Origin: Acidimicrobiales bacterium | Lineage (GTDB): Bacteria; Actinomycetota; Acidimicrobiia; Acidimicrobiales; GCA-2861595 | Assembly (NCBI GenBank): GCA_035536185.1 | Contig: DATLOM010000018.1 | Span: 135,865-199,864, forward strand | Direction: 5' to 3' | DNA: 64,000 nucleotides | Shown: in pieces, positions 10,620 through 58,746 of the stretch | How the letters are laid out: each line of letters opens with the position of its first letter | How positions within the stretch are numbered: the first letter of the stretch is position 1 | Position numbers and translations under genes: made by a program | The notes under the pieces: model-generated | What the model was told of the DNA's origin: nothing | Databases searched by the model: none | The model's input: the letters and a program-made list of their open reading frames with translations, nothing else

Positions 10620-10625
10620 GGGCTG

Positions 10626-17357
<6,732 letters not shown>

Positions 17358-23472: not shown

Positions 23473-23733
23473 GAGAGGTTCCCCAGCCAACTAGCGCTGC
23501 GGCAGAGCCCAGGGGCTCTTTCATCGGCTGAGCAACCTCACGCCCACCCTAGCAACAGCGTGGGACGACGCACGGGGATGGTCAGCTCTGAACGCCTCGT
23601 CGAAGGGCCGGGAACTTCGCCTCCAGCGCCTTCACGGTCAATCTTGCTGAGTGGTGGATCGTCGCAATCAGGAAGCGATAGCGCGCTGGGCGGGCGATCT
23701 AGGTCGACTCGCAGCGTCTTGGAAGGCGACGGG

Positions 23734-24687: not shown

Positions 24688-25167
24688 GGACCCCAGGATC
24701 GCACACCATAAATGGGTTCCGTTGTGGACCCGGCTCACAGAATCGGCGATCTGCTCGCAGGTCGTGACCCGCGGCGGTGTCCCAGAACGCGCTGCGACAC
24801 TCGGTTCTCTACAGATGCCCCCCAACGCCGGATGAAGGTCCCGGGTCGAAACGAAGCCGGTGTGGATGGCCGTGGCTCGGGTCCCCACCGGACGCCCGAG
24901 TCGAGTTGAGCGACTGGACGGCTGACCTGGCTCCGGGTCGTCGGTTGCTGGAGGTGGCCCGCCATGCCTACTTCGCCTTCACCATCACCATCACCATCTA
25001 CACCCTCGTCATGCCGAGCCTCCGCAGCGAAGCGGCCGACCTCATGGACGGGGTGCTCCGACCACCTGCTGAAGCGCCGGATCCTCAAGTGGCTACAAAA
25101 GTGGCTACAAAAGGCCTTGGCCGCGACCCCCCGGGAATGGCCTGAAACGCGAAACTGCTGGTCATCG

Positions 25168-25184
25168 AATGGTGGGCCGGGCAG
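25168..25184. repeat. 17-bp direct repeat AATGGTGGGCCGGGCAG, identical to the tRNA-Tyr 3' end at 26452-26468
   Basis: There is an exact match at both flanks of the IS element. Confidence 0.9.
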
Positions 25185-26451: not shown

Positions 26452-26453
26452 AA

Positions 26454-26538
<85 letters not shown>

Positions 26539-42581: not shown

Positions 42582-43085
42582 TCAGGAGCCGACGACAATG
42601 GGGTCACCCTTCCACCGCTCGGCCATGTCCTCGTGCTGGATCCGCTCCTGCAGCAGGACGATCCCCTCCAACAGAGCCTCGGGTCGGGGCGGGCAACCGG
42701 GTACGTACACGTCGACCGGGATGATCTGGTCGACACCCTTGGTCACTGAGTAGCTGTCCCAGTACGGCCCGCCGCAGTTCGCACAGGATCCCATGGAGAT
42801 GACGTACTTCGGGTCCGGCATCTGCTCCCACAGGCGGCGGATCGGCGGCGCCATCTTGTCGGTCACCGTTCCCGAGATGACGACGAGATCGGCTTGGCGG
42901 GCGCTGGCCGGGAACGGGATGACGCCCAGGCGCATGACGTCGTACCGAGGCGAGCCGAAGGCCGCTCCCATCTCGATGGCGCAGCAGGCGAGGCCCCACT
43001 GGTACACCCACAGGGAGTACTTGCGGCTGAGGTTGAGCAGGTAGGTGAGGGGCTTCGGGATGAGCCCCTTCTCGACTAGACCCAC
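42582..43085 (-). CDS. nuoB: NADH-quinone oxidoreductase subunit B
   Basis: Trimmed to GTG 43085. The cluster N2 ligands are [20 protein letters not shown] and VPGCPP. Confidence 0.9.
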
Positions 43086-43441
43086 CTCAGCACTCCCTTG
43101 CGCCAGGCGTAGATCAGGCCCAGGGCGAGGATGAAGATGAAGATGAGCATCTCCACCAGCCCGAAGACCCCCAGAGCCTCCAGCTGGATGGCCCAGGGGA
43201 AGATGAACACGGCCTCCACGTCGAACATGACGAACAGCAGGGCGAAGATGTAGTAGCGCACCTGGCTCTGGGACCAACCGGTGCCGACGGGGTCGACGCC
43301 GCTCTCGTAGGAGATGTACTTCTGGGGCTGCGGACGGGTCGGGCGCAGGAGGCTGCCGGCCCCCAGCATGGCCCCCACCATGGCCACCGCGGCACAACCG
43401 AAGATGAGGACGCTGAGATAGCCCCGGAGGAACTGCGACAT
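43076..43441 (-). CDS. nuoA: NADH-quinone oxidoreductase subunit A
   Basis: 121 aa with three transmembrane segments. It shows YESGVDPVG and [12 protein letters not shown]. Confidence 0.9.
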
Positions 43442-43736: not shown

Positions 43737-45185
43737 GTGACACTGGCGACCAGAGCGAAAAGACAATCACCCGGCTTTCGCTGGAACCCCCCCTTCCGGC
43801 GGGCGGCGGGTGTGGTCGAGGTGGACTTCGAGACGCCACCGAGGGCGCGGGCACGGTCGGGACAGCGGCTTGCCGTCGTTCGGCTGCTCCCGGTCCTGTT
43901 GGACTCGGCCTGCCTGGCCGTTGCGTGGCTGGCCGTCGTCGCCGTGCTGGGAACGCCGAGCTCGATGGAGACGGCGTCGTTCACCGGTTTCGCCATCGCC
44001 TCGATGATCGTCGCCGGCCTCATCCACGCCTTCATGGGGCTGTACGCCGCAGGTCCCGCCGCCCTGGGCATCATCGACGTCACCAACGTCGTACGCGCCT
44101 CGCTGGGCTGGGGCACCCTCGCCGCCGGCGCCGCGTTCCTGATCGAGCCGCCCATCCCGCAGGCATGGGTGGCCCTGTCCTGCCTCTTCGGCTGCGTGCT
44201 CGTCGCCGCCACCAGGCGGGCCCTGTGGCACTGGTGCCCCGACCACGGCAAGAGCCTGTACGGCCGCCCTTCACCGGCCGATCCGGACGTTCGCCTGGGG
44301 TACGACATGGGCCGCCTCCGGAAGCGCTACATGGTGATCGCGGCCATGGGAGGACGGCGGCAGCGTTGCCAGGAGGTGCTCAAGCGGGGCGTCGACCTCG
44401 TCCTGACGCCCGTGATCATCGCCTTCACGTTGCCGGTCATGGCTGTGGCCGCGCTCGTGATCCTCGTGAGCGAGGGCCGGCCCATCCTGTTCCGCCAGCG
44501 CAGGGTCGGGCGCAACGGGGTCCCGTTCACCATCTTCAAGTTCCGCACGATGGTGCCGGATGCCGAGAAGCAGCTGATCGACCTGCGCGAGCTCAACGAG
44601 CGGGACGGTCCCCTGTTCAAGCTGACCCACGATCCGAGGGTCACCCGTACCGGCCGGCTCCTCCGAGAATCGAGCATCGACGAGCTGCCCCAGCTGTTCA
44701 ACGTCCTCGTCGGGACCATGAGCCTCGTCGGGCCCCGGCCGGCGCTGGCGGACGAGACCGAGCTGTTCGAAGCGGACCTGCTGCGCCGGCACCACCTTCG
44801 CCCCGGGATCACCGGGCTCTGGCAGGTGCGCTCGCGGGACGACGCTTCCTTCGAGTCCTACCGGTACCTCGACCTCTGCTACCTGGAGAACTGGTCCGTC
44901 CTGACCGACATGGTCATCCTCTTCGCCACTGTGCCCGCCGTCCTCCGCCGTGGCTGGAGCCTCCTCCTGCGGGCGGCACCGGGCAACTCGTTCTCGGCAG
45001 GACGGCGCCTCATGGTCAGGCTCGGCCGTCGCCCGCAGGATGACGGTGGCGTCCTTGCTCCGGCCGGAGCGTCTCTCTTCCCCGCCGCCACCGCTTCAGC
45101 ACCGGGGGTGCGCGAGGTGATCCTGAGCTCGAGCCTGGACGTGGCCCTTCCTATGAACGAGGCGGGGCTCAGCCAAGGACGGTGA
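43737..45185 (+). CDS. Polyprenyl-phosphate sugar phosphotransferase (WbaP / Bac_transf-type priming enzyme)
   Basis: It has N-terminal transmembrane segments. It shows [54 protein letters not shown] and [10 protein letters not shown]. Confidence 0.85.
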
Positions 45186-47109
45186 CGGCGACGACGGGGC
45201 TGGGCGGCGGGTTGCTGCCGAGGGAGCCGTCGAAAGGCTTGTCGCTGAACACGAAGGCACCGCCGTCGGCCGCCACCAGCAGGTAGCCGTTGCCGTAGCT
45301 GACCATCCCGCTGACCGGCTTGTTCAGGCGGAGGTCGCCGAGCGAGCCCCTGAACGGGGCACTGAAGGCGAACACACCTCCGTCGGAGGCCACCATGTAG
45401 TAGCCGTCACCGTCGGGGTCGGGTACGAGCGACTGGACCGGGGCGTTCAGGCGCTTGCCGCCCATCGACCCGTGGAACGCGGCGGCGCCGAAGGCGAAGG
45501 TGCCCCCGTCGGAAGCGACCATGTAGTAGCCGTCACCGCGGGAGGTGGTGACCGAGTCCCGGATCGGCCCGTTCAGCGGCTTTCCCGCCATGTCGCCGAA
45601 GTGGGTCGCGTCGCCAAAGGTGAGCACCCGGCCTTTGGTGGTGAACATCCAGTAGCCGTTGCCGCTCCTGGTCCTCGACAGCGACGTGACGGACTCGCCG
45701 GCAGAGAGGGGCGTGGCATTTCCGTGCCAACGGGCGGTGCCGAACGCGAAGACCCGGCCGGCGGTGTCGACGACCCAGTACCCGTCCCCCCCGCTGGTGG
45801 CCTCGATGTCCACCGCGTTGGCATCCCTAACCGGGGCGTTGCCAAGGTAGGGGGCGGCGCCGAAGGCGTAGACGGCACCCTTCTGAGCCACCATCCAGTA
45901 GCCCGACCGGCCCGAAGAGGGCCGGGCGCCGATGGATCCCCCGGAGAGCAGTGCGGGCTCGCCGAACGGCGGTGCCAGCGCCACCCGGGGGGTGCCGCCG
46001 CCACCGATGCTGCCGGGGCCGTTGTTCGTGACGTGGTGGAGCTGGTCGAAGAGGCGGTTCATGTCCCGGTTCCAGGCGGTGTCGGACCAGCCTGAGTTCG
46101 AATAGGTCGACATGTTGATGCCGGCGGCGGCCATCTCGGCCTTGACGCCGTGCTCGACGTTGAGCAGGTTCTGGCCCCAGCCGGTGTCGAACCCGGAGTT
46201 GTCCACGACGTAGGAGCCGTAGTTCTGCCACGCCTCGGCCAGCTTGCGGGCGGGGCCGGTCTCCAGACCGAGGGAGTTGATGTCGACCCAGCCCGGGATG
46301 GAGAGCAGCGATCCCATCTTGAGGATCGGGGTGTAGCCGCGGGCGTTGACGCCGTAGTTCTGTCCGGTGTTGTTCGAGTCGGCGGCGTAGGCCGGCCACT
46401 GGTAGGCGTTGCGGTCCGCTTCACGGGTGCCCCACCGGCTCATGTCGACGGTCAACTTGGTGACGTGGCGGATCGGGGCGACACCGGTCAGCTCCCCTCG
46501 GCGGATGCTGCCGCCGACGCCGCTCAGACCGGAGCCGCCGTGGCCGCCGAAGAACGACGACGGCCGGCCGTTGCCGTAGAGGTCGAGGGTGCTGCGAAGG
46601 CCGTCGCCGGTGAGGCTGGCCGGGCCTCCGGCGTCGCACCGGGACAGGTAGTTGAACTCCCGGATGGTCCGCCCGTCGGCCAGCAGGGCTCCGCCGGCCA
46701 GGTTGGGCATCTTGCCCTCCCAGCTCCCGTCACCGGGGGCCACCACGTAGTCATCGGGGATGGGAAGGGAGACGCCGCTGCTGGCGTCGCCACTCTGGTG
46801 GCAACGGGCCGGCCAGGCGTGGGTGTGCACCGGCCGCAGCGGGCTGGACGGCGCCATGACGATCGGGTTGGAGTCGGTTCCGTACCCGTTTGGCGGCTGG
46901 AAGAAGTTCGGATCGGCGAAGGTCGCCCCCGAGCCCACGGGCATGTTCCAGATGCTGTCGGATGAGAACGGCCAGGCGTAGGGGTTCCGGGCGGTGGGAT
47001 CGGCCGCCGCTGCGGTCGGGGAGAGGCTCAGCCCGACGAGGCCGGAGATGAGGGTGAGGGCGGCGGCGAGCAGCGCGATGCCGGCATGCCGGCGGGGGGG
47101 CGATTGCAT
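45169..47109 (-). CDS. Secreted protein: uncharacterised ~370-aa domain (paralogue 1) plus six C-terminal ~41-aa beta-propeller-like repeats
   Basis: It has a signal peptide and the conserved block NPYAWPFSSDSIWNMPVGSGATF...GGGGTPRVALAPP. The repeats have the form (D/N)GY(W/Y)xVxxDGGxFAFGxAxFxGS. Confidence 0.7.
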   Translation of the reverse strand: MQSPPRRHAGIALLAAALTLISGLVGLSLSPTAAAADPTARNPYAWPFSSDSIWNMPVGSGATFADPNFFQPPNGYGTDSNPIVMAPSSPLRPVHTHAWPARCHQSGDASSGVSLPIPDDYVVAPGDGSWEGKMPNLAGGALLADGRTIREFNYLSRCDAGGPASLTGDGLRSTLDLYGNGRPSSFFGGHGGSGLSGVGGSIRRGELTGVAPIRHVTKLTVDMSRWGTREADRNAYQWPAYAADSNNTGQNYGVNARGYTPILKMGSLLSIPGWVDINSLGLETGPARKLAEAWQNYGSYVVDNSGFDTGWGQNLLNVEHGVKAEMAAAGINMSTYSNSGWSDTAWNRDMNRLFDQLHHVTNNGPGSIGGGGTPRVALAPPFGEPALLSGGSIGARPSSGRSGYWMVAQKGAVYAFGAAPYLGNAPVRDANAVDIEATSGGDGYWVVDTAGRVFAFGTARWHGNATPLSAGESVTSLSRTRSGNGYWMFTTKGRVLTFGDATHFGDMAGKPLNGPIRDSVTTSRGDGYYMVASDGGTFAFGAAAFHGSMGGKRLNAPVQSLVPDPDGDGYYMVASDGGVFAFSAPFRGSLGDLRLNKPVSGMVSYGNGYLLVAADGGAFVFSDKPFDGSLGSNPPPSPVVAVTVLG

Positions 47110-47133
47110 GGTCTTGGCTCCAGCGGGACCAGG

Positions 47134-47220
47134 ACCGGTCGGTTTCGGTAGTCCGGCTAGGTCAATGACCCCCGTGACTTTGCGCCTCCGCCTCGCGACG
47201 GATTTGCCGGTTCGACCGAT
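47134..47220 (-). ncRNA. Candidate c-di-GMP-I (GEMM-I) riboswitch aptamer, copy A
   Basis: The minus strand reads AUCGGUCGAACCGGCAAAUCCGUC-GCGA-GGCGGAGGCGCAAAGUCACGGGGGUCAUUGACCUAGCCGGACUACCGAAACCGACCGGU. It contains GGCAAA, a GNRA-capped hairpin, CGCAAAG, a second hairpin, and an 8-bp closing helix. It ends 24 nt upstream of ATG 47109. Confidence 0.6.
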
Positions 47221-47308
47221 CTAACGGACGTTTCTTCAGCCTTGATCGACAGGTGCAGCGAGGGGCTTTAGCGGGCGATCCCGGACGTGGTTCGTCCATC
47301 GGAGGTGT

Positions 47309-48985
47309 TCATCGGCTCGACTGCTTCTTGAGCCTGGGCGCCTTCGTGGTCGTGGTGGTGGCCGGCATCGTGGTCGTGGTCGTGGTCGTCGTCGTGGCGA
47401 TCGTCGGAATCGTCGTGGTCGTGGTCGTGGTCGTGGTGGTGGTCGTCACCACCGCGTCCGCTCGGGTGAAGCCGGCCTCGGCGTAGAAAACGTTCCCGTT
47501 GGTCAGGGTCATCCGGGCACCGATCCGGTGGGTGCCCAGCGACAGTTGCCTCAGCGGGGTCGCCAGACTGGTGCTCTGCTCGAAGTCGTAAGGCGTGGCC
47601 GCCTCCGATCGGGTATCGACGCCGTCGAGCGTGAAGCTCACCGCGGTTACGCCCGGATCGTTCACGAAGACATAGGTCTGGCTGTCGACGGCGGTGTCCC
47701 GGAGGGCTCGCCCGTTGCTGCGGTCGGCGTTGTCGCTGACCCTGATCAGGTCGACCATGTCGACGGGAGCAGTGGTTGTCGGAGCCGGCGTGGTCGTCGT
47801 GGTCGTGGTCACGTCCGGTGCCGGGCTCGACGCTGTGGCGAACGGCGGCGCCAGGGCCACCCGGGGGGTGCCGCCGCCGCCCACGGTGGCCGCGCTGTTG
47901 TTGGTGACGTGGCGGAGCTGGTCGAAGAGGCGGTTCATGTCCCGGTTCCAGGCCGTGTTGGCCCAACCCGAGCTCGCGTAGGTCGACATGTCGATGCCGG
48001 CGGCGGCCATCTCGGCCTTGACGCCGTGCTCGACGTTCAGCAGGTTCTGCCCCCAGCCGGTGTCGAAGCCGGAGTTGTCCACGATGTAGGAGCCGTAGTC
48101 CTGCCAGGCCTGGGCCAGCTTGCGGGCCGGTCCGGTCTCCAGGCCGATGGCGTTGACATCCACCCAACCCGGGATGGACAGCAGCGACCCCATCTTGAGG
48201 ATCGGGGTGTAGCCGCTGGCGTTGACGCCGTAGGTCTGGCCGGTGTTCTCGGAGTCGGCGGCATAGGCGGGCCACTGGTAGGCGTTGCGGCCCCCTTCAC
48301 GGGTGCCCCACCGGCTCATGTCGACGGTCAACTTGGTGGCGTGGCGGATCGGCTCGGCACCGGTGAGCTCACCCCGGCGGATGCTGCCCCCGACCCCGCT
48401 CAGCCCTGAGCCGCCGTGGCCGCCGAAGAACGAGGACGGCCGGCCGTTGCCGTAGAGGTCGAGGGTGCTGCGCAGCCCGTCGCCCGTGAGGCTGATCGGA
48501 CCTCCGGCGCTGCAGCGGGAGAGGTAGTTGAACTCACGGATGGTGCGCCCGTCGCCCAGCAGGATCCCACCCGCCAGGTTGGGCATGTTGCCCTCCCAGC
48601 TGCCGTCGCCGGGGGCCACGATGTAGCCGTCGGGGATCGGGAGTGACACTCCGCTGTAGGTGTCGCCACTCTGGTAACAGCGGGCCGGCCAGGCGTGGGT
48701 GTGGACCGGCCGCAGCGGGCTGGACGGCGCCATGACGATCGGGTTCGAGTCGGTGCCGTACCCGTTGGGCGGCTGGAAGAAGTTCGGGTCCGAGAAGGTC
48801 GCTCCCGAACCGACCGGCATGTTCCAGATGCTGTCGGATGAGAACGGCCAGGTGTACGGGTTGCGACTGGTAGCCTCGGCGGCAGCTCCCGTCTGGGAGA
48901 GGTTCAACCCGACCAGCCCCGAAGCAAGGGTGAGGAGGGCAGCGAACACCGGAACGCCCGAACGGCGGCGGGTGGGCGATTGCAT
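47309..48985 (-). CDS. Secreted protein: the same ~370-aa domain (paralogue 2), then a poly-Thr linker, a ~110-aa domain and a poly-Thr tail
   Basis: It has a signal peptide and the block NPYTWPFSSDSIWNMPVGSGATF...GGGGTPRVALAPP, followed by TTTTTTTPAPTTT. The C-terminus is TTTTTTTTTTTTIPTIATTTTTTTTTMPATTTTTKAPRLKKQSSR. Confidence 0.7.
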   Translation of the reverse strand: MQSPTRRRSGVPVFAALLTLASGLVGLNLSQTGAAAEATSRNPYTWPFSSDSIWNMPVGSGATFSDPNFFQPPNGYGTDSNPIVMAPSSPLRPVHTHAWPARCYQSGDTYSGVSLPIPDGYIVAPGDGSWEGNMPNLAGGILLGDGRTIREFNYLSRCSAGGPISLTGDGLRSTLDLYGNGRPSSFFGGHGGSGLSGVGGSIRRGELTGAEPIRHATKLTVDMSRWGTREGGRNAYQWPAYAADSENTGQTYGVNASGYTPILKMGSLLSIPGWVDVNAIGLETGPARKLAQAWQDYGSYIVDNSGFDTGWGQNLLNVEHGVKAEMAAAGIDMSTYASSGWANTAWNRDMNRLFDQLRHVTNNSAATVGGGGTPRVALAPPFATASSPAPDVTTTTTTTPAPTTTAPVDMVDLIRVSDNADRSNGRALRDTAVDSQTYVFVNDPGVTAVSFTLDGVDTRSEAATPYDFEQSTSLATPLRQLSLGTHRIGARMTLTNGNVFYAEAGFTRADAVVTTTTTTTTTTTTIPTIATTTTTTTTTMPATTTTTKAPRLKKQSSR

Positions 48986-49009
48986 GGTCTTGGCTCCAAA
49001 GGGACCAGG

Positions 49010-49096
49010 ACCGGTCGGTTTCGGTAGTCCGGCTGGGTACGAGACCTCCGTGACTTTGCGTCTCCGCCTCGCGACGGATTTGCCGGTTCGACCGAT
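49010..49096 (-). ncRNA. Candidate c-di-GMP-I (GEMM-I) riboswitch aptamer, copy B
   Basis: It is near-identical to copy A. It has GACGCAAAG instead of GGCGCAAAG and a different apical sequence in hairpin 2. It sits at the same 24-nt distance from ATG 48985. Confidence 0.6.
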
Positions 49097-49202
49097 CTAA
49101 GCGGGCGGGACCTCGTCTCCATCGGCCGGCGCTCGGTGGTGCTTGAGCGCGACGTTCCCGCTGAGCCAACGTGCGTAAGGGCCCCCGTAGCGGAACGGAA
49201 GA

Positions 49203-50705
49203 TCAGGGATGCGTCGCGGGCTCCGGCACCGATGTCGTGGCGATACGCACCTGCCACGCCGGATTGCGGCTGAGGGCCCATGCAAGGGGCACGCACAGGT
49301 ACCACTGCACCACCGGCTGGGCCAGCAGGTTCTCCGACGAGCACTGGACGACGAACGCGGCAAATGCGGCGGCGGCGCCGACGACCACGCCTCGATTGAT
49401 CCCCGCCGGCAGGGCCCGCAGCGCCCGCCTCAGCTCGAAGGTCACGGCCAGGAAGAAGGCCACAAGAGCGAGTAGCCCGGCGGCCCCGGTCTCGACGACT
49501 GCCTGGACGAAAACGTTGTGGGGAGGAAGCTTGTATGCGGTACGGCGCTCCACGACGTTGAGCCCGATACCTGTGATCGGCCCGTCCGACGTGAAGGGCA
49601 GTACGTCCTGCCAGTACTGGATCCGCCATGACAACGAGTCGGGGTCGCCGATCACCGAACCGGAGTCGCCGCCGAGGTCAGCCAGGCGGCTGGCCGCCGA
49701 CGGAACGGCCAGCAGGACGACGGCAGTGCCCGCGATCACGAGCCAGATGAGGCGCCGGTCCTGGAGCCATCCGATGAGCATCACGCCGACGAAGGCCGCC
49801 GCCCAAGCTCCCCTGGCATAGGTGAAGAACAGCAGGAACCCCGACGCGCCGGCCACGGTCACGATCCCGACGCGGACGAAGCGGCGGACGTGGGGCAACA
49901 GAGCCACCGCCACCGGGAAGAGCATGGTGAGATAGGCGGCGAACACGTTGGGATGGACGAAGGTCCCCTGAATGCGGCCGACGTCGAGGGCCGGACCGTA
50001 GAGCGGGACCTCGGGGACGTTGCCTTGAAGCTGAAGGGCGGCCGTGAAGGCGGGAACGATCATCGAAGCGAAGGTGGCCACGAGGAGACCGGGGAGCCGA
50101 TCGGGCCGGTCGCGCAGCGCCTGCTCGAGGACGATGAGCATGACCGCGGTCGACACCACCCTCAGGGCCGCCTGGAAGCTGACAGTCGGGGCGTCCGAGG
50201 TGACCGAGCTCAGGACGCAGACCCCGGCCAGCGCCACGAAGGCGAGGCTCGAGCGGGAGGAGACGATGGGCAGGCCCGAACGCCAGCGCCGGTAGAGCCA
50301 GACGGCCGAAGCACACAGGATCACCATGCCGAGGACCGTCGACGGTTCGGCGGGGAGAGCAGCCTCTCCGGACTTGAAGTAGTCGAGCCCCGGCCGGCTG
50401 GCGAAGACGATCACGACCGCGGCCCAGAACCGGCTGGCCGCCCAGCGGACGGTCGTGTACCCGACGACCACAGCCAGTATGCCGAAGAGGGGCAGCCCCA
50501 GGCCCGGACGGGAGGCCGAGACGGCGCCGGTGACGACGGACGCGACCACGACGGCTACGGCGAGCATTGGGAGGAACAGACCTGACCGCTCGGCCGCTGC
50601 AGGCGAAGACCCGTTGTCACTCCGGGAGTCGCTATGGCCGCCCGCACCACCGCTTCGGGAGGCTCTGAACGCCTGCGTGGTGGGCGCCCCGCCTGTCGGG
50701 CTCAC
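49203..50705 (-). CDS. O-antigen ligase / Wzy-like polymerase family membrane protein (start uncertain)
   Basis: It has about 10 or more hydrophobic segments. The motif FLLFFTYARGAWAAAFVGV is typical of Wzy_C proteins. Confidence 0.6.
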   Translation of the reverse strand: MSPTGGAPTTQAFRASRSGGAGGHSDSRSDNGSSPAAAERSGLFLPMLAVAVVVASVVTGAVSASRPGLGLPLFGILAVVVGYTTVRWAASRFWAAVVIVFASRPGLDYFKSGEAALPAEPSTVLGMVILCASAVWLYRRWRSGLPIVSSRSSLAFVALAGVCVLSSVTSDAPTVSFQAALRVVSTAVMLIVLEQALRDRPDRLPGLLVATFASMIVPAFTAALQLQGNVPEVPLYGPALDVGRIQGTFVHPNVFAAYLTMLFPVAVALLPHVRRFVRVGIVTVAGASGFLLFFTYARGAWAAAFVGVMLIGWLQDRRLIWLVIAGTAVVLLAVPSAASRLADLGGDSGSVIGDPDSLSWRIQYWQDVLPFTSDGPITGIGLNVVERRTAYKLPPHNVFVQAVVETGAAGLLALVAFFLAVTFELRRALRALPAGINRGVVVGAAAAFAAFVVQCSSENLLAQPVVQWYLCVPLAWALSRNPAWQVRIATTSVPEPATHP

Positions 50706-50748
50706 AGGAAAACGGCCCGGTCAGCGGGCGGCGTCGGCCGCCGACCCA

Positions 50749-51735
50749 TCACGCCTCATCCGCGACCCTCACCGGCTGAGAAGCGACGTCACGGCCCCCG
50801 GGGGGCCACCCGACCACATCGGCCTGCCTTGCCTGGACAGCTTCCGCCCGGCGGCGCTTGCGCCAGTCCAGGAGGGCGAAACCGCCGAGGGTGCCCACCA
50901 CTGTCACCAGCGTCGATCCGACCACCCCCCGAGCGATGGCGGACGTTCGGGAGACGGGCGAAGCTCCCCCGTCCTTCACCAACCCCGGAGTCTCCACGGC
51001 CGCAAGCCTGGCCGTAGCCAGCTGCCGGTCGCTCTCGGCTTTGGCGATGGTCTCCTCTGACCGGTCGAGACGGTTGAGCAGCACGTCACGCCGGGAGCGC
51101 AGGGCGCTCATCTCGGCCAGCTGCGCGACGACCGCGTCCGCCTGGGCACTCGTGGCCGGGTCCGCCCGCAGCGCGGCGAGCCTCCGCCTCTGGTTCTCGT
51201 ACTCGGCGTCGAGGTCGGCGAAGCCGGTGGACTCGTCCAGCGCCGCCAGCTCGTCACGCGTCGCTTGCAGATTGCTGGAAGCCTCCTTCACCTGCGAGTC
51301 CGCGAGGGCCCGGTCCTGCTCGGCCAGAGCTCTGAGGGTGGCCAGGGCCGCCTCTCTCGGAACTCGAGCGGCGATCTCGGGGTCCTCGGAACCTTTGAAG
51401 ACGATGGAGACGATTGTGCCCTGGTTCGCCCGGGAGGAGACGGTGCCGAGCGCTATGTCGAGGGCGGGCACCCCTGTCGACTTGGAAACGGCGTCGGTCG
51501 TCTCGGAAAAGGTGAGGCTGGACTGGAAGGTCGACACGAACGGGTCCATCTCGATCCCGGCCCGCCCGGGATAGAGCTTGGAGAGGAAGACCACCGCCCT
51601 GCCCTCGTACAAGGGAGGAGGGCTGACGATCGTCCCCACGGTCAGCCCGATGCTCAAGGCCGTGACGGCAACGAGGAGAACCCGGCGACGAACCGTGAGG
51701 TTCACCAGAGGAGGGGCTGGAGCCGTGGGGATCAT
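50749..51735 (-). CDS. Wzz-like polysaccharide co-polymerase (chain-length determinant)
   Basis: It has N- and C-terminal transmembrane segments flanking a long coiled-coil region (ALADSQVKEASSNLQATRDELAALD...). There is no kinase domain. Confidence 0.55.
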   Translation of the reverse strand: MIPTAPAPPLVNLTVRRRVLLVAVTALSIGLTVGTIVSPPPLYEGRAVVFLSKLYPGRAGIEMDPFVSTFQSSLTFSETTDAVSKSTGVPALDIALGTVSSRANQGTIVSIVFKGSEDPEIAARVPREAALATLRALAEQDRALADSQVKEASSNLQATRDELAALDESTGFADLDAEYENQRRRLAALRADPATSAQADAVVAQLAEMSALRSRRDVLLNRLDRSEETIAKAESDRQLATARLAAVETPGLVKDGGASPVSRTSAIARGVVGSTLVTVVGTLGGFALLDWRKRRRAEAVQARQADVVGWPPGGRDVASQPVRVADEA

Positions 51736-52005
51736 CGCCGCTCGACCTCGTCCGCTTGGCTCACGTTGTGCACCTGCTCCAACCTTTCAGCACCACCTGG
51801 CGAAGAGCTCGTGCGCCGTCACGCTGCGGCTGACGAACGCGGTACGTCTACCGCCATCAAGCAAGGTACCAGACCTCCCAGTCATCTTTTCTTCGCCTCG
51901 CCGCGCAAAACCGCAAGGTTGTCCTCGAGCCTCGAACCTCGGAGGGCACCACTAGGGTTGCCTGGTGGCTCGGGATCGGCATCAACGGAGGCGGAAGCCG
52001 CGCTG

Positions 52006-53109
52006 ATGCGGATCGCGCTGGTGGGCACCCGCGGCGTGCCGGCCCGCTATGGAGGGTTCGAAACCGCCGCCGAGGAGATCGGGCGGCGCCTGGTCGAGCG
52101 GGGTCACGAGGTGGTCGTCTACTGCCGCAACGCGGATCCGGAACAAGTCGAGTACCTGGGAATGGAGCTCGTTCACCTGCGGTCGCTGCGGCTGAAGTTC
52201 AGTGAGACCCTCACTCATACCGCGATGTCGCTGATGCATCTTCGGAGCCGGCCGGTGGACGTCGCCGTCGTCTTCAATGCCGCGAACGCCCCACTTCTAC
52301 CCATAGTTCGCCGGCGCGGGATCCCGGTGGCGGTTCACGTCGACGGCCTCGAGTCGTTGCGAGCCAAATGGGGCGGGATCGGCCGTGCCTATTACAAGAA
52401 GGCCGAGAAGGTGGCCGTCAGGTGGGCCGACGAGCTGATCGCCGATGCTCGAGGGATCCAGGAGCACTACGCCCTCACCTACGGCGTGTCCAGCCGGCTC
52501 ATCGCTTACGGCGCGCCCCTCCTGTACGACCGTCCCGATCATCGGCTGGAAGAGCTGGGCCTGAGGAGCGCCAGGTACCACCTAGTCGTCGCCCGCTTCG
52601 AGCCGGAGAACTGCATCGACGTCATAGTCGACGGCTACCAGCAGAGTGAGGCGGAGCTCCCGCTGATCGTCGTCGGGTCGGCCCCGTACGGGAACCGGTA
52701 CCGGCAGCGGGTGGAATCACGGGCGGCGAACGACGAGAGGGTCCGCCTCCTCGGGCCGGTCTGGGACCAGGAGCTACTCGACCAGCTGTACGCCCACGCC
52801 TCCAGCTACGTGCATGGTCATTCGGTCGGAGGTACGAACCCGTCGCTGCTGCGAGCCATGGGTGCCGGCGCTCCCGTCATCGCCATCGACGTCCGGTTCA
52901 CGCGGGAGGTGCTCGAGGACACCGGCGTGTTCTTCCGGGGCCCATCCGACCTCGCCGGCCTGATCAGCGGTGCGGAGGCCGATCCGAAGGCCGCGAGAGA
53001 ACGCGGCCGGCGAGGCCGGGAACGCGCCGCCTCGGCCTACGTGTGGGAGGACGTGGTGGACGACTACGAGCGGATGTGCCAGCGGCTGCACGAGGATGCG
53101 CAGAGCTAG
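52006..53109 (+). CDS. GT4-family glycosyltransferase with a DUF1972-type N-terminus
   Basis: Trimmed to ATG 52006. It shows MRIALVGTRGVPARYGGFETAAEEIGRRLVERGHEVVVYC and the C-terminal motif GHSVGGTNPSLLRAMGAG. Confidence 0.8.
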   Translation: MRIALVGTRGVPARYGGFETAAEEIGRRLVERGHEVVVYCRNADPEQVEYLGMELVHLRSLRLKFSETLTHTAMSLMHLRSRPVDVAVVFNAANAPLLPIVRRRGIPVAVHVDGLESLRAKWGGIGRAYYKKAEKVAVRWADELIADARGIQEHYALTYGVSSRLIAYGAPLLYDRPDHRLEELGLRSARYHLVVARFEPENCIDVIVDGYQQSEAELPLIVVGSAPYGNRYRQRVESRAANDERVRLLGPVWDQELLDQLYAHASSYVHGHSVGGTNPSLLRAMGAGAPVIAIDVRFTREVLEDTGVFFRGPSDLAGLISGAEADPKAARERGRRGRERAASAYVWEDVVDDYERMCQRLHEDAQS

Positions 53110-53124
53110 CCAAGCCACTCCGGC

Positions 53125-54366
53125 TCAGGCAGCCGCGGTCACCAACTCGGCCGCCTCGGCGTAGAGCCGGTCGAGGCCCTGTAGGTGCCCCGGGATCGAG
53201 TAGTCCCGCTCTACCTTGACTCGTCCGGCTCGGCCCATCGCCGCGGCCCGGTCGGTGTCGGAAAGAAGAGCGTTGAGCGCGGTAGCCAGGGCGCGAGGGT
53301 CCTCGGGCGGAACGAGAAGACCGTCCACCCCGGGTTCGATCAGCTCCCGGACGCCGCCGCGATCCGAGCCGACCACGGCGACACCGGACGCGAAAGCCTC
53401 GAGAATGATCATCGGCTGGTTCTCGTAGAACCGGGACGGGATGGCAAGCACGGCCGCAGCATCGAGATGCTGTTGCAGTTCGACCTTGGAGAGGCGACCG
53501 AGAAAGCGGACCCGCCCGGGGGCCACCCGCGAGGCCAGCTCCTCCAGCTTCTCCTGCTCGGGCCCCTCCCCGGCGATGTCCAGGATCGTGGAAGCATCCA
53601 TCCACTGGAGCGCTTCGACGACGAGATCGACGCCCTTCTCAACGGAGAGCCGTCCGGCGAAGAGAAGCCCCTTCTTGAGGGTGGCGGTTCGCCCCCGCCC
53701 TGATGCCTGGGCGAAATGTGGCAGCACGCGCAGTTTGTCGGGGAACACGCCGGCTTCCGTCATCTTCGCCGCAATGAACCGGCTCGGGCAGATGAACAGC
53801 TGGATGGGCGCGTAGGCCCTGAAGTAGGTGTGAAGGGTGAGCTCGCCGGCGAGGAGGGCGCTTTCGACGAGCGACCCGTTCTTGCACCGCCGCAGGACGG
53901 CGTTCTGGAACTTGCCGCCGAGGCATGCCTCGCACACCTTGCCCTTGTCGAGGAAGTGGTAGGTGGGGCAGGCGAGCTTGAAATCGTGAAGGGTCATGAC
54001 ACTGGGCACACGGTGCTGGGCCAACGGTCGCAGGATCGACGGCGAGAGCTGGTGGTGGATGATGTGGAGGTGGGCCACATCCGGCTTGAACTCCCGGATC
54101 ACCTTTTCCATCCCGGCTGCCGACGACGAGCTCCATACCATCCGGGCGGCCGCTTTCAACTTTCCGGCCACACCGGCAGGAGCCGGATTGAGCTCCAAGT
54201 AGGTGGGGAAATGCTGTTCCAGGGGCGCCGGCTCGTTGTCCGGGTGCTGCATCGAGAAGAAGGTCACGTCGTGACCGGCCTGTCGTTGCAGTGCCGCCAG
54301 CTCCAGCATGTACGCCTCCGAGCCGCCCCTGCGGTGGAGGAACTTGTTCACGTGGAGTATCCGCAT
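53125..54366 (-). CDS. GT4-family glycosyltransferase
   Basis: It shows MRILHVNKFLHRRGGSEAYM, FAGRLSVEKG, and an E-x7-E region (ENQPMIILEAFASG). Confidence 0.8.
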   Translation of the reverse strand: MRILHVNKFLHRRGGSEAYMLELAALQRQAGHDVTFFSMQHPDNEPAPLEQHFPTYLELNPAPAGVAGKLKAAARMVWSSSSAAGMEKVIREFKPDVAHLHIIHHQLSPSILRPLAQHRVPSVMTLHDFKLACPTYHFLDKGKVCEACLGGKFQNAVLRRCKNGSLVESALLAGELTLHTYFRAYAPIQLFICPSRFIAAKMTEAGVFPDKLRVLPHFAQASGRGRTATLKKGLLFAGRLSVEKGVDLVVEALQWMDASTILDIAGEGPEQEKLEELASRVAPGRVRFLGRLSKVELQQHLDAAAVLAIPSRFYENQPMIILEAFASGVAVVGSDRGGVRELIEPGVDGLLVPPEDPRALATALNALLSDTDRAAAMGRAGRVKVERDYSIPGHLQGLDRLYAEAAELVTAAA

Positions 54367-54429
54367 CAGTTGGGCGAACGTCCTCTCGAGGCGTCAAGGC
54401 CGATACTACAGCCGCAGAGGCGGCCGTCC

Positions 54430-55386
54430 TCAGCCGAGGCGCACCTCGCGGGACGCCCGGTTGTCCCGGCGCTCGACCATCTGTGCGGGCGCCACCGCGC
54501 ACATCAGGGCCCGGAGTGTCACGCTTCCCGCCGGGTCGAGGCCGCCCCGCACGCTCCGATCCTGCAGCGCGGCCCGCAGCATCGCCCACCGGGCGGCACC
54601 GGCTCGACCGACCCGGGCATGGGCATATCCTTCGAGCAGCCGGACCCGCGCCCGACGCCGCCGAAGTGCCTGCTCGACAATAGGGCGCTCCTCCGCGGTC
54701 ACCTGATCGAGAAGCTCTTCCAGGATGACGATGTCCCAGGCCAGGTAGCGCTCGCCGGACGAGAGGCTGTCCGGTCGGTTCCGGAAGGCGACCGTGCAGG
54801 TGCCCGGCACGGCCACCCTGCACCCGTTGCGGATCATGCGTATCCAGAGGTCCCAGTCCTCGTCGCAGCGCAGATCGCGGAAACCGCCGACGGCGTCGTA
54901 GCTCGCCCGCTCCATGACAACGTTGGAGAAGAGAAAGTTGCGGCGCAGGATCTCCCGGGGTTGATCCTGCTCTGCCGGAATGGCGGCGATCAGGTTCCAG
55001 GGGGTCTTCGCGACCCGACGCTCCGGCACCCAGCGGAAGCCGGCGGCTGCGACTATTCCGCCATGCCGGGCGTGACATTCCAGCATGACCTCGAGGTGGT
55101 CGGGCAACAAGTAGTCATCGGCGTCGAGCAGGGCCAGGAGCTCGCCTGAGGACCGGGCGATACCATCCCGGCGCGCCACTCCGAGACCTTCGTTCTCGGG
55201 CTTGGTCACCAGTACGAGTGGGAGGTGGTCCGACCACCGCCTCGCGATCTCCCCCGTCTCGTCGGTGGAGCCGTCGTCGATGACGACCACCTCGTCCGCC
55301 GGACGCGACTGCGCCGCAACGGAAGCCAGGGCGGCATCGAGGAAGCGACCGGCATTGAACGCAGGAATGATCATCGACACAGTCAT
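54430..55386 (-). CDS. GT2-family glycosyltransferase (paralogue of 58758-59771)
   Basis: Trimmed to ATG 55386. It shows MIIPAFNAGRFLDAALASV, VVVIDDGSTDET, LLDADD and EDWDLWIRM. Confidence 0.8.
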   Translation of the reverse strand: MTVSMIIPAFNAGRFLDAALASVAAQSRPADEVVVIDDGSTDETGEIARRWSDHLPLVLVTKPENEGLGVARRDGIARSSGELLALLDADDYLLPDHLEVMLECHARHGGIVAAAGFRWVPERRVAKTPWNLIAAIPAEQDQPREILRRNFLFSNVVMERASYDAVGGFRDLRCDEDWDLWIRMIRNGCRVAVPGTCTVAFRNRPDSLSSGERYLAWDIVILEELLDQVTAEERPIVEQALRRRRARVRLLEGYAHARVGRAGAARWAMLRAALQDRSVRGGLDPAGSVTLRALMCAVAPAQMVERRDNRASREVRLG

Positions 55387-55583
55387 CTGTCCCGCCTTCT
55401 TCGAGAGACGGCGAATGCTAGATGCCGTCCCCGACAGTCCTCCCGACCAGGATCGTGCCGCCGCTACCGCTACCGTGCCCCATCGTGGCGGAAACCCAGA
55501 CGGTCGACACCCTGGAGCGCCAGGAGCGCCCGGAGACTCCGAGCTCAGGCGGCCGGGAGCGGGTACCGCGGCGGGAGCCGGTG

Positions 55584-56870
55584 ATGATCTACATGCTGGC
55601 CTGTCTCGTCCTGCTGGCCGGTGGCTTGTGGGCGGCGGCCCACCACCGTGAGCAAGAGCAGCCCTCGCCGGTGCCGGCGCCGGCGCCGGAGCGGCAAGGC
55701 TCTGCGGCCGAGGGGCCCGGAGCGGTATCGCCTCCCGCCATGGCCGAGTCACCGGAGACTCCGCCCTCGGTCGTCACTCAGGCGCCGAAGCCGAAGCCAC
55801 CTCCCACACCCCCGACAACCGCTCCGATCCGGTCGAGGAACGCCCAGCAGTGGCCCTTCTCCTCCGACAGCATCTGGAACATGCCGATCGGTTCAGGTGC
55901 GACCTTTGCCGACCCGAACTTCTTCCAGCCGCCCAACGGTTACGGCTCCGACGCCAACCCGATCGTCATGTCGCCCTCCAGCCCGCTGCGCCCGATCCAC
56001 ACCCACGCCTGGCCCGCCCGCTGCCACAAGAGCGGCGACGCCTACAGCGGTGTCTCGGTCCCCATCCCCGACGACTATGTGGTGGCCCCCGACGACGGCA
56101 ACTGGGATGGCAAGACGCCCAACCTCTCGGGGGGCGTGCTGCTGGCTGACGGGAGGACCGTCCGGGAGCTCAACTACTTCTCCCGCTGTGAAGCCGGTGG
56201 GCCGGCGAGCGTCACCACCGACGGGATGCGCAGCACCCACGACCTCTACGGCAACGGGCGCCCGGATTCGTTCCTCGGGGGCCACGGCGGATCGGGGCTG
56301 AGTGGTGTCGGCGGCAGCATCCGCCGGGGGGAGCTGATCGGTGCCGCCCCGATCCGCCACGTCACCAAGCTGACCGTCGACATGAGCCGGTGGGGCACCC
56401 GTGAAGGGGGCCGCAACGCCCATCAGTGGCCCGCCTACGTCGCCGACTCCGACACCACCAGCCAGACCTACGGGCTCAACGCCCGCGGCTACACGCCGAT
56501 CCTCAAGATGGGATCACTGCTGGCCATCCCTGGGCCGGTCGACCTCGACTCGCTCGGCCTGGAGACCCGTCCCGCCCGCAAGCTGGCCGAGGCCTGGCAG
56601 AACTACGGCTCCTACGTCGTGGACAACTCCGGGTTCGACACCGGCTGGGGCCAGAACCTGCTCAACGTCGAGCACGGCGTCAAGGCCGAGATGGCCGCCG
56701 CCGGCATCAACATGTCGACCTATTCGAGCTCAGGCTGGTCCGACACCGCCTGGAACCGGGACATGAACCGCCTCTTCGACCAGCTCCACCACGTCACCAA
56801 CAACGGCCCCGGCAGCATCGGTGGCGGCGGCACCCCCCGGGTGGCGCTGGCACCGCCGTTGGTCCCGTAG
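55584..56870 (+). CDS. Membrane-anchored protein carrying the same ~370-aa domain (paralogue 3)
   Basis: The likely start is ATG 55584 (MIYMLACLVLLAGGLWAAA, a transmembrane anchor). A Pro-rich linker follows, then QQWPFSSDSIWNMPIGSGATF...GGGGTPRVALAPP. Confidence 0.7.
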   Translation: MIYMLACLVLLAGGLWAAAHHREQEQPSPVPAPAPERQGSAAEGPGAVSPPAMAESPETPPSVVTQAPKPKPPPTPPTTAPIRSRNAQQWPFSSDSIWNMPIGSGATFADPNFFQPPNGYGSDANPIVMSPSSPLRPIHTHAWPARCHKSGDAYSGVSVPIPDDYVVAPDDGNWDGKTPNLSGGVLLADGRTVRELNYFSRCEAGGPASVTTDGMRSTHDLYGNGRPDSFLGGHGGSGLSGVGGSIRRGELIGAAPIRHVTKLTVDMSRWGTREGGRNAHQWPAYVADSDTTSQTYGLNARGYTPILKMGSLLAIPGPVDLDSLGLETRPARKLAEAWQNYGSYVVDNSGFDTGWGQNLLNVEHGVKAEMAAAGINMSTYSSSGWSDTAWNRDMNRLFDQLHHVTNNGPGSIGGGGTPRVALAPPLVP

Positions 56871-57030: not shown

Positions 57031-58746
57031 ATGGCGAAACCGAGAGTTGCAGCTATCGGCATCGACGCAGCCGAGTGGGCCGCAGTGGAGTCGCTGGTCG
57101 AGGAGGGCGCGCTGCCCAACATCGAGAAGCATCTGGATGCCAGCTCCATGCTCGAGATGCACGGAGATGCTCCTTACCGGGCCGAGGCGAGCTGGACCGA
57201 GTTCCTGACGGGCCGGAAGGCGGCGGACAACAGGTACTGGTCGACGGCGCAGTTCGACCCGGGTACCTACGAGATGTGGGAGGTGGGCGCCTACCGAGGA
57301 GTCCCCTTCTACGGGCGGCCCGACATCAAGTCCATCGTGTTCGACACGCCCCACGCCCACCTGGCGCCCGAGGCTCGGGGAGTGCAGATCACCGGATGGG
57401 GCGCCCACTCTCCGCAGTTCCCCACGGCCTCGTCACCCCGGGCTCTCGTCGCCGAAGTCGACAGGCGCTTCGGCGTTCACCGCGCGATCAAATCGGACAG
57501 CCTCGTCGGGTGGCACAACGACACGTACGGCCGCAACCTGACCGAAGCCATGCTCGACGGCCTCGACAAGAAAGCCGACATCAGCGCCTGGCTGCTCGAT
57601 GAGTACCCCGACTGGGACCTGTTCGTGACGGTGCTGTCCGAGACCCATGTGGCCGGCCACCAGTTCCTGCACGGGGTGCTCGAAAAGCATCCCCTGCACG
57701 GTTCTCGGTTCTCGCCTGCCGCCGACGCGCACTTCCGGGCCACCTACAGCAAGGTCGACGAGGTGATCGGCCGGCTGACCGCCAGCCTGGGTGACGACAC
57801 CACGGTCGTGCTGTTCGCCGTGCACGGTATGGCGTGGAACGGTGCCGACACGGCCTGCGTCTGGTTGCCCGAGCTCCTCCACCGGATGAGCTTCGGGAAG
57901 CCGTTCATCGACTTTCCCGCCTGGACGCCTGGAATGCCCCTGGTCGACCTCGAGCCGGAGATGGCGCCGGTGGAGTACCTGTTGAGGTACACAACCGAGC
58001 CGGTGGGCAGCATGTACAAGTCGAAGCCGTCCGCTCTCAAGAACCGGATCGCCTGGGGGATGAGGCGGATGACGCCACCCGGCCCGCTGACAACCATCGA
58101 AGGGATGTGGAGGCGTGCCTCAGGGGTGAAGTCACGCCATGTGTGGTGGGAGATGGATGTCCGCGAGCCGGGGTCGCCCACCACGGACCTCGCCATGGCC
58201 AGCGCCCGCCAGCCCTGCGACTATCACGTCGCCTCGTGGTTCTGCGCCCACTGGCCGAAGATGAGGTACTTCGTACTCCCGTCATTCTCCGACACCCACA
58301 TCCGGATCAACCTGAAGGGCCGGGAGCAGAACGGCCTTGTCGACCCCCGCGAGTACGGCAAGGTGCTCGACGAGGTCGAGGAGATGCTGCGGGGGCTCAC
58401 GAATGCCCGCACCGGTACACCCGTCGTGGCCGAGACGTACCGCGTGAGGGCTGACGACCCCATGAACCCCGACGGGCCTACGGCGGACCTGGTCATCACC
58501 TTCGCCGACGTCGCCGATGTCGTCCACTCCCCCGATGTCGGCGTGGTCGGGCCGTGCCCCTTCCTCCGCTCGGGGGAGCACACCAACAACGGGTGGGCCG
58601 CCTTCCGCACCCCCAGTGGCGCCTCCGGAGCGTTGGGAGAGGGCCGCCCGCTCGACCTCGCGCCCACCCTGCTCGACCTCTTGGGACGGCCGCAGTCACC
58701 TCTCAACACCGGTCGCTCGGTCGCGCCGCTACTCCAGAGTCGCTGA
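57031..58746 (+). CDS. Alkaline-phosphatase-superfamily (type I phosphodiesterase / nucleotide pyrophosphatase-like) protein
   Basis: It shows VAAIGIDAA at the N-terminus, plus SETHVAGHQF and FAVHGM. The family assignment is tentative. Confidence 0.45.
   Translation: MAKPRVAAIGIDAAEWAAVESLVEEGALPNIEKHLDASSMLEMHGDAPYRAEASWTEFLTGRKAADNRYWSTAQFDPGTYEMWEVGAYRGVPFYGRPDIKSIVFDTPHAHLAPEARGVQITGWGAHSPQFPTASSPRALVAEVDRRFGVHRAIKSDSLVGWHNDTYGRNLTEAMLDGLDKKADISAWLLDEYPDWDLFVTVLSETHVAGHQFLHGVLEKHPLHGSRFSPAADAHFRATYSKVDEVIGRLTASLGDDTTVVLFAVHGMAWNGADTACVWLPELLHRMSFGKPFIDFPAWTPGMPLVDLEPEMAPVEYLLRYTTEPVGSMYKSKPSALKNRIAWGMRRMTPPGPLTTIEGMWRRASGVKSRHVWWEMDVREPGSPTTDLAMASARQPCDYHVASWFCAHWPKMRYFVLPSFSDTHIRINLKGREQNGLVDPREYGKVLDEVEEMLRGLTNARTGTPVVAETYRVRADDPMNPDGPTADLVITFADVADVVHSPDVGVVGPCPFLRSGEHTNNGWAAFRTPSGASGALGEGRPLDLAPTLLDLLGRPQSPLNTGRSVAPLLQSR

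Follow-up and report, generated by a model that had tools for sequence, protein, structure and literature searches.

The window analyzed here is a stretch of 64,000 nucleotides from an Acidimicrobiales bacterium (assembly GCA_035536185.1, contig DATLOM010000018.1, positions 135,865 to 199,864 of the forward strand), in which three paralogous genes, probably encoding glycan-cleaving enzymes of an unnamed family, lie within a Wzx/Wzy polysaccharide cluster. Paralogue 1 (45169-47109, minus strand) encodes 646 amino acids (aa) and matches exactly the NCBI protein HVE45823.1 (VNA57_03620). Paralogue 2 (47309-48985, minus strand; 558 aa) is taken from the listing of open reading frames (ORFs), and paralogue 3 occupies the ORF 55422-56870 on the plus strand, its NCBI counterpart being HVE45830.1 (VNA57_03655; 461 aa). 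NCBI annotates paralogues 1 and 3 as 'hypothetical protein', and the source is an Acidimicrobiales metagenome-assembled genome. The initial annotation of this DNA, made from the letters alone, had singled out the three genes and quoted landmark motifs common to them; all three are intact ORFs (the third as the ORF ending at 56870 on the plus strand), and all of these motifs were found in the paralogues.

The shared part is a core block of 341 aa, collinear in all three paralogues with zero indels in the alignment; the collinearity proposed earlier stands, at a length below the 370 aa or so first given. The core corresponds to residues 41-381 of paralogues 1 and 2 (45967-46989 and 47843-48865, both on the minus strand) and to residues 139-479 of paralogue 3, numbered from the ORF opening at 55422 (55836-56858, plus strand). 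Between any two copies, identity amounts to 0.86-0.89 at the DNA level and 0.81-0.89 at the protein level, a similarity that, from the alignment, is far above chance. Codon differences reach about 0.20 at third positions vs 0.06-0.10 at first and second positions, so that all three copies are under purifying selection, and the residues invariant across the wider family are kept in each of them.

The cores are not uniformly divergent. A sliding-window comparison gave a mosaic, in which the last 300 nt or so of the cores of paralogues 1 and 3 (45967-46270 on the minus strand and 56555-56858 on the plus strand) are 96-100% identical, against 80-90% upstream of this tract, where the copy nearest to paralogue 1 is paralogue 2. 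These near-identical ends belong to genes that are inverted relative to each other and 9 kb apart, and the tract indicates recent gene conversion. The comparison indicates a history of the form ((paralogue 1, paralogue 2), paralogue 3), overlaid by recent conversion between paralogues 1 and 3.

Each core is carried by a different architecture. Paralogues 1 and 2 start with features typical of cleavable signal peptides: an n-region that contains Arg, a hydrophobic segment (residues 11-29), and then an Ala-rich stretch. In paralogue 1, the core is followed by six repeats of 40-42 aa (residues 403-646; 45172-45903, minus strand), which the initial annotation had called propeller-like. An AlphaFold (AF2) model of the repeats, built from 87 aligned homologues, reached a predicted local distance difference test (pLDDT) score of 95.2, and Foldseek matched the model to 811 beta-propellers of the PDB at E ≤ 1e-3, with the best template modelling score (0.66) for six-bladed YWTD propellers (LRP6); the module is thus modelled as a six-bladed beta-propeller, in agreement with the first description. 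It has more than 2,600 homologues, for which there is no Pfam model, and is a common C-terminal module in Acidimicrobiia and Actinomycetota, where its partners include CHAP, Amidase_2, NlpC/P60, S8 peptidase, and CAP domains. Because many wall-active enzymes of Acidimicrobiia bear it, it is likely a generic module for surface retention or binding. Several JGI records mislabel propeller-bearing proteins as 'ribosomal protein L24E'.

Paralogue 2 is built in the order signal peptide, core, poly-Thr linker, a domain of about 108 aa (47447-47770, minus strand), and a second poly-Thr tract with a basic C-terminus; the extra domain had zero Pfam or PDB matches. Paralogue 3 is anchored by a membrane helix (about 55581-55637, plus strand), preceded by an Arg-rich N-tail and separated from the core by a Pro-rich stalk (about 55656-55826). 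The three different modes of export or anchoring proposed earlier are borne out (two signal peptides, one membrane helix, and three distinct modules), but the start then assigned to paralogue 3, at 55584, is doubtful. Although 55584 has the best Shine-Dalgarno (SD) sequence among the possible starts, as read by eye, it would remove the Arg-rich flank kept by every close relative, all of which (54-75% identity) share the Arg-rich tail, the single membrane helix, and the Pro-rich stalk. The start is probably upstream, either at 55422 or at the GTG at 55485, which, calculated from the sequences, is where the NCBI protein begins, 21 codons into the ORF.

Paralogues 1 and 2 also share a regulatory leader, earlier described as riboswitch-like. 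The 5' leaders (47110-47224 and 48986-49100, both on the minus strand) each contain an aptamer, at 47144-47218 and 49020-49094, respectively, which the Rfam covariance model for the cyclic di-GMP (c-di-GMP) riboswitch of class I, RF01051, scores at 55.4 bits for paralogue 1 and 53.0 for paralogue 2, the gathering score being 35. Both aptamers span model positions 1-87 of 87, lie on the same strand as their gene, and end 35 nt before the start codon; they are bona fide full-length c-di-GMP-I aptamers. No aptamer was found in the leader of paralogue 3. Aligned, the two leaders differ little between the ATG and a point 6 nt ahead of the aptamer, and upstream of that point they are unrelated; the unit that was duplicated was, therefore, the riboswitch together with its gene.

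Downstream of both aptamers, no terminator-like element was found (terminator-like matches fall within coding repeats), and a promoter scan gave no sigma-70-like sites. Folding indicates a translational expression platform, alike in both leaders. A 9-bp P1 helix (GAUCGGUCG / CGACCGGUC) is able to close each aptamer, and its 3' strand shares 4 nt with a hairpin in which the GGAG Shine-Dalgarno sequence is sequestered. The intact hairpin has an energy of -13.1 kcal/mol, vs -5.5 to -6.5 kcal/mol when the 4 nt are removed. With P1 enforced, the unpaired probability of the first two Gs of GGAG rises from about 0 to about 0.5 in paralogue 1, with a smaller rise in paralogue 2. As P1 would rob the hairpin of these 4 nt, c-di-GMP probably switches on the secreted enzymes at the same time as matrix production; a translational ON switch is, on these folding calculations, weakly favoured. 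A plainer test of polarity, in which the aptamer was simply blocked in the fold, was uninformative, and the extended-P1 model did better but was still weak.

The core itself resembles no described family. None of the three cores had a Pfam or NCBIfam hit, and searches of PDB sequences by phmmer and hmmsearch (with a single sequence and with a profile) gave no match at E ≤ 10. In bulk scans of 115 and 56 family members, every family listed was a recognisable accessory module. The AF2 model of the paralogue 1 core, built on a 115-sequence alignment, has a pLDDT of 95.5 and a predicted template modelling score of 0.94; according to DSSP, it is rich in loops, and its N-terminal half is mainly of beta structure while the C-terminal half is alpha/beta. 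Foldseek of this model against the PDB, a check that the initial annotation had proposed, returned no fold match (best E 1.4), while the propeller served as the control with its 811 matches. The earlier statement that the block belongs to no named family is, thus, upheld by Pfam, NCBIfam, PDB sequence and profile searches, and Foldseek alike, and no paper describing the family was found in the literature.

A word-indexed search with the core returned 358 hits, all unnamed. The family comprises 4,140 representatives at 50% identity (E ≤ 1e-3), 1,454 of which reach E ≤ 1e-30, and occupies more than 550 loci in species-representative genomes of Bacteroidota, Cyanobacteria, Chloroflexota, Proteobacteria, Planctomycetota, Bacillota, Acidobacteriota, and Actinomycetota. 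Tandem paralogy is recurrent, with 2-4 copies in 14 of 80 loci, and some proteins contain 2-3 copies of the domain. This is a real, large, unannotated, and structurally unmatched family. Ten residues, all present in the three paralogues, are kept from bacteria to phages (S52, N55, R203, E206, H215, D244, Y252, Y300, D303, and E319, in paralogue 1 numbering). The four carboxylates among them, E206, D244, D303, and E319, answer to the invariant acidic residues that had been suggested as catalytic candidates; their conservation through the phage branch looks enzyme-like, and they may be catalytic.

The company kept by the core points to glycans. Its fusion partners include CBM13-like, CBM6, CBM35, F5/8-C, PA14, ricin, H-lectin, and Wzt_C domains, dockerins, type IX secretion system (T9SS) tails, and GDSL esterases (the last in 5 of 56 long family members), in addition to fn3, Big, and PKD modules. 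Family genes occur in Wzy/Wzz and sulfotransferase exopolysaccharide (EPS) clusters, beside glf in Nostocales, and, in Bacteroidota, with SusC (11 loci), SusD (8), alpha-galactosidase (8), and BNR/sortilin (7) neighbours, as well as GH2 and GH31. The association of homologues with polysaccharide loci elsewhere, on which the first interpretation depended, is, thus, found in EPS, Glf/GlfT2, and SusC/SusD loci. On an apparently cyanobacterial metagenome contig (L087:7527-12105), the family gene stands between predicted PMT_2 and DUF2079 membrane glycosyltransferase-like proteins, and PMT_2 recurs among the neighbours in genome loci.

One alternative is a non-catalytic glycan-binding or matrix-scaffold protein, a lectin or adhesin that gives order to the EPS, or anchors cells and phage tails to polysaccharide, without cutting anything. 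The core has no recognisable catalytic fold, phage tail proteins often serve in receptor binding, adhesins too are typically multiplied in tandem (here 14 of 80 loci) and found as multi-copy proteins, and adhesins are commonly under c-di-GMP control. Nevertheless, this explanation is unlikely. The frequent fusion of the core to several different carbohydrate-binding modules (CBMs) or lectins is the pattern of a catalytic module, the core is found in SusC/SusD catabolic loci next to glycosidases, and four carboxylates plus Arg, His, and Tyr are conserved from bacteria to phages. A glycanase function of the core is well supported by context, with an endo-acting glycoside hydrolase as the most likely type and a lyase as a less likely one.

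The family also extends into phages. PHROG 17388, labelled 'minor tail protein', matches the C-terminal half of the three paralogues (E 2e-13 to 7e-10), and 11 viral proteins match. Foldseek against BFVD retrieved a Gordonia minor tail protein and a 'parallel beta-helix repeat' protein (E 1e-20 to 1e-15), and the family hidden Markov model covers a nearly full-length domain in Forza gp90 and Stormageddon gp18 (E 1e-33 and 1e-35). The domain is present in 31 Gordonia phages, the genus to which the cultured-phage homologues are restricted. In the tail protein gp90 of Gordonia phage Forza (L082:2570-5524), a CE4 deacetylase domain lies upstream of the family domain. In IMG/VR, 22 contigs carry the domain, in proteins of 394-2,207 aa (most ≥560 aa), and the neighbours at viral loci are terminase, portal, head, tail, and tail-fibre genes. 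Searches of PDB sequences with Forza gp90 and Stormageddon gp18 returned nothing, and those with the large viral proteins returned one tail-fibre segment and nothing else.

Actinophage tail proteins often carry wall hydrolases, and the core might, for this reason, be a peptidoglycan or cell-wall hydrolase, used in wall remodelling by bacteria and in wall penetration by phages. The fusion of paralogue 1-type propellers to CHAP, Amidase_2, and NlpC/P60 elsewhere, and the CHAP and SH3 neighbours at one locus (L001), agree with this. However, the contexts of the family are mostly EPS biosynthesis, Glf/GlfT2, and SusC/SusD with alpha-galactosidases; the CBM6, CBM13, CBM35, and lectin partners do not bind peptidoglycan; the family is spread across didermic phyla, with T9SS tails and dockerins; and the core is unlike any known muramidase, amidase, or peptidase. 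A wall hydrolase is, hence, an improbable reading, more so than an adhesin, and cleavage of other glycans is the preferred one.

For some clades, the substrate can be narrowed down. Ten Nostocales loci (L014, L026, L047, L048, L051, L052, L061, L067, L068, and L074) have glf, the gene for UDP-galactopyranose mutase, 89-2,280 bp from the family gene, which is often present as 2-3 tandem copies; a GlfT2-like galactofuranosyltransferase of family GT2 occurs in 7 of the 10, and a Wzt ABC exporter is present. This arrangement implies an uncharacterised galactofuranose polymer pathway. The Gordonia wall contains galactofuran, and the Nostocales Glf/GlfT2 linkage and the Gordonia phages, taken together, suggest galactofuranan activity in some clades. 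Galactofuranose was also considered as the substrate for the clade of the window and was rejected: tblastn finds no Glf, GlfT2, or Wzt in the window, and the relatives lack Glf and GlfT2. The substrate of the copies studied here is presumably the product of the local cluster.

This cluster was proposed to be of the Wzx/Wzy type, and its gene content bears this out. The initiating phosphoglycosyl transferase (Bac_transf, 43737-45185, plus strand; Pfam E 5.6e-61) precedes paralogue 1, and a Wzy-type polymerase or O-antigen ligase-like protein (Wzy_C, 49203-50705, minus strand; E 5.1e-19) follows the leader of paralogue 2. Next comes a protein (50749-51735, minus strand) that is conserved in the relatives' clusters, is hydrophobic in segments near its two termini, and had no Pfam hit; it is 42% identical to the product of the equivalent gene there and sits in the position expected of a chain-length regulator, a Wzz/PCP (polysaccharide co-polymerase) role that is possible. 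Pfam identifies two GT4 glycosyltransferases (52006-53109, plus strand, DUF1972 + Glycos_transf_1; 53125-54366, minus strand) and a GT2 glycosyltransferase divergently oriented from paralogue 3 (54430-55386, minus strand). Beyond paralogue 3 are an alkaline-phosphatase-superfamily protein (Phosphodiest, 57031-58746, plus strand) kept in the relatives' clusters, a second GT2 glycosyltransferase (58815-59771, plus strand; the ORF opens at 58554, with homology from near 58815), the Wzx-type flippase (Polysacc_synt, 59776-61155, plus strand; Pfam E 4e-11), and an Acyltransferase_3 (Acyl_transf_3, 61199-62344, minus strand), with O-acylation of the polymer as its probable function. A methyltransferase-like protein and a further GT2 lie at the window edge. 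The set of Bac_transf, flippase, Wzy, two GT4, and at least two GT2 is that of a Wzx/Wzy-dependent cluster. NuoA- and NuoB-like ORFs (42582-43441, minus strand), recognised by eye, directly adjoin it, which places its left border near 43.7 kb.

The acyltransferase and the phosphodiesterase-superfamily protein mean that removable substituents probably exist on the polymer, and the core could be a carbohydrate esterase or another non-glycosidic hydrolase (e.g., of the Ser-His-acid type) that removes acyl or phospho groups. The invariant S52 (in the motif FSxDSIWN), H215, and the acidic residues could make a triad. Set against this are the repeated fusion or pairing of the core with esterases (GDSL in 5 of 56; CE4 in Forza and in the relatives' clusters), which suggests a complementary activity rather than a redundant one, and the lack of any match between the core and an esterase profile. 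An esterase is, therefore, about as improbable as an adhesin, and glycosidic cleavage is retained as the preferred activity.

Orthologous clusters were found in three relatives, P0003 and P0004 (about 70% identity) and P0002 (75%), with genes 42-72% identical. Each contains a single family gene, at the position of paralogue 3, and nothing between Bac_transf and Wzy_C; paralogue 3 can, therefore, be taken as the ancestral cluster member, and paralogues 1 and 2 as a lineage-specific insertion and duplication, as judged from synteny. No riboswitch was found in the relatives with syntenic clusters. Rfam scans of 8 loci and a GEMM-I motif search of 89 loci found no riboswitch near family genes elsewhere; a metagenome scan with paralogue 1, which yielded only 3 distant relatives, found no aptamer. 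In the data sampled, riboswitch-gated secreted duplicates beside an ungated, anchored ancestral copy are unique to this genome. In the EPS clusters of the relatives, the family gene has a separate CE4 gene at a distance of three genes (L084:8489-9541; L086:11295-12347); CE4 and FemAB-like genes of those clusters are absent from the window.

The conserved, anchored, and extracytoplasmic placement of paralogue 3 and its close relatives in a Wzy-dependent cluster would also suit a transferase or ligase by which the completed polymer is joined to the wall or another acceptor, as LCP proteins do, and no LCP family gene was found in the sampled part of the cluster. This reading of the membrane-anchored form is very unlikely, less probable than any of the other alternatives: the secreted, CBM-fused, and phage-tail versions, and those encoded in polysaccharide-utilisation loci (PULs), make no sense if lipid-linked donors are required, and there is no LCP profile match in the core.

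The whole can be brought together as follows. The core would define a family of glycan-cleaving enzymes, clades of which were recruited to EPS biosynthesis clusters, to catabolic PULs, and to phage tail proteins. Paralogue 3, tethered by its N-terminal helix and Pro-rich stalk, would be the ancestral, anchored member and probably trims, releases, or sizes the Wzx/Wzy polymer at the cell surface. A unit of riboswitch plus gene would later have entered the cluster between the priming transferase and Wzy and been duplicated, giving two secreted copies with differing modules, the propeller of paralogue 1 and the Thr-rich linkers and 108-aa domain of paralogue 2, among which the labour may be divided. 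Formation of P1, by taking 4 nt from the SD-sequestering hairpin, would gate the translation of each secreted copy. This explanation as a whole is considered probable, though by no means secure. Its observed elements are the triplication, the riboswitches, the cluster, and the size, fusions, and contexts of the family; catalysis, substrate, the division of labour, and the polarity of the switch are deduced from these. The glycan-acting role, put forward initially as plausible but unproven, is strengthened by the CBM, dockerin, lectin, and carbohydrate esterase fusions and by the phage tail homologues; it is still unproven.

Several observations weigh against this explanation. No member of the family has a known enzymatic activity, and the core resembles no characterised catalytic fold. 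The phage copies lack the HGGSGLS motif and D79, both of them confined to bacterial members. Recurrent glycan-related neighbours occur in at least 40 of 79 loci, a lower bound with no formal background control; some neighbourhoods, such as L001 with its CHAP and SH3 neighbours, are not clearly glycan-related, and several contexts each represent one evolutionary event copied by synteny. As for regulation, the ON model of the riboswitch derives from thermodynamic folding and is weak in paralogue 2, and the aptamer is present in 0 other family members among the 89 loci.

A broader proposal is that of a new family of carbohydrate-active enzymes with a fold absent from the PDB, common to EPS clusters, Bacteroidota PULs, and phage tails, of which at least one clade (Nostocales, possibly Gordonia phages) acts on galactofuranose polymers and whose secreted copies in this genome are c-di-GMP-gated. 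It is advanced tentatively, with slightly more doubt than confidence.

Glycanases encoded in EPS clusters, functionally the nearest analogues, are well known, for example, PslG (GH39), BcsZ (GH8), the hydrolase domain of PelA (GH166), AlgL (PL5), and ExoK/ExsH for succinoglycan. The genes described here resemble them in lying inside the polymer's own cluster and in encoding extracytoplasmic proteins with a presumed function in trimming, sizing, or release, and paralogue 3 is membrane-tethered as PslG is. The deacetylase-plus-hydrolase pairing of PelA and PgaB has a parallel in the relatives' clusters and in phage Forza. However, the core has no sequence, profile, or Foldseek similarity to these enzymes, there are three paralogues with different modules, two of them under a riboswitch, and the activity is proposed from context.

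Extracellular factors controlled by c-di-GMP-I (GEMM-I) riboswitches include gbpA of Vibrio and, in Clostridioides difficile, the protease ZmpI/PPEP-1 and adhesins. There, as here, a class I aptamer lies immediately upstream of a gene for a secreted protein and would tie the level of the second messenger to remodelling of the surface or matrix. What differs is that aptamer and platform have been duplicated with the gene, inside an EPS cluster of Acidimicrobiales, that the gene belongs to an uncharacterised, probable enzyme family, and that the polarity is predicted. Phage tail depolymerases offer a further comparison, as the homologous domains are located in large tail proteins, some beside beta-helix, CE4, or fibre segments, but the core model is not a classical right-handed beta-helix and a depolymerase activity of the phage homologues is only conjectured.

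In distribution, the nearest counterpart is GH183 (DUF4185), formerly a domain of unknown function and a model for assigning a function to this orphan family; its endo-D-arabinanases occur in Actinomycetota, in PULs of Bacteroidota, and in a Gordonia phage (Al-Jourani et al. 2023, PMC10115798). The core family has the same unusual distribution. Nevertheless, no member of it matches Pfam DUF4185, and it is also abundant in cyanobacteria and EPS clusters.

If the core is catalytic, several thousand sequences would make up a new family of the CAZy type, with a fold of its own and absent from curated libraries, and its recognition would help to annotate PULs, phage tail proteins, and EPS clusters better in at least seven phyla. 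The phage and Nostocales links suggest galactofuran-attacking enzymes, which would be useful for the analysis of Mycobacteriales cell walls and for phage biology. Gated secreted copies beside an ungated anchored copy form a compact natural system in which the coupling of matrix synthesis and remodelling through c-di-GMP could be followed, in a class, the Acidimicrobiia, that is poorly studied.

Two regions of the window outside the polysaccharide cluster deserve mention. An unusually elaborate signalling cluster occupies 6411-17357 on the minus strand: a hybrid histidine kinase of 2,243 aa (10626-17357), with about 12 tandem HAMP domains, GAF, HisKA/HATPase_c, and three receiver domains, then a receiver-histidine kinase (8105-9763) and a receiver-GAF-SpoIIE/PP2C phosphatase (6411-8651). 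At 21460-26538, an rve-type insertion sequence transposase (25254-26396, plus strand) adjoins a tRNA gene (26457-26538, minus strand), with a DUF1643 gene at 21460-22353; the GC content of this region is 0.63-0.65, vs about 0.68 elsewhere, and it may be a mobile island.

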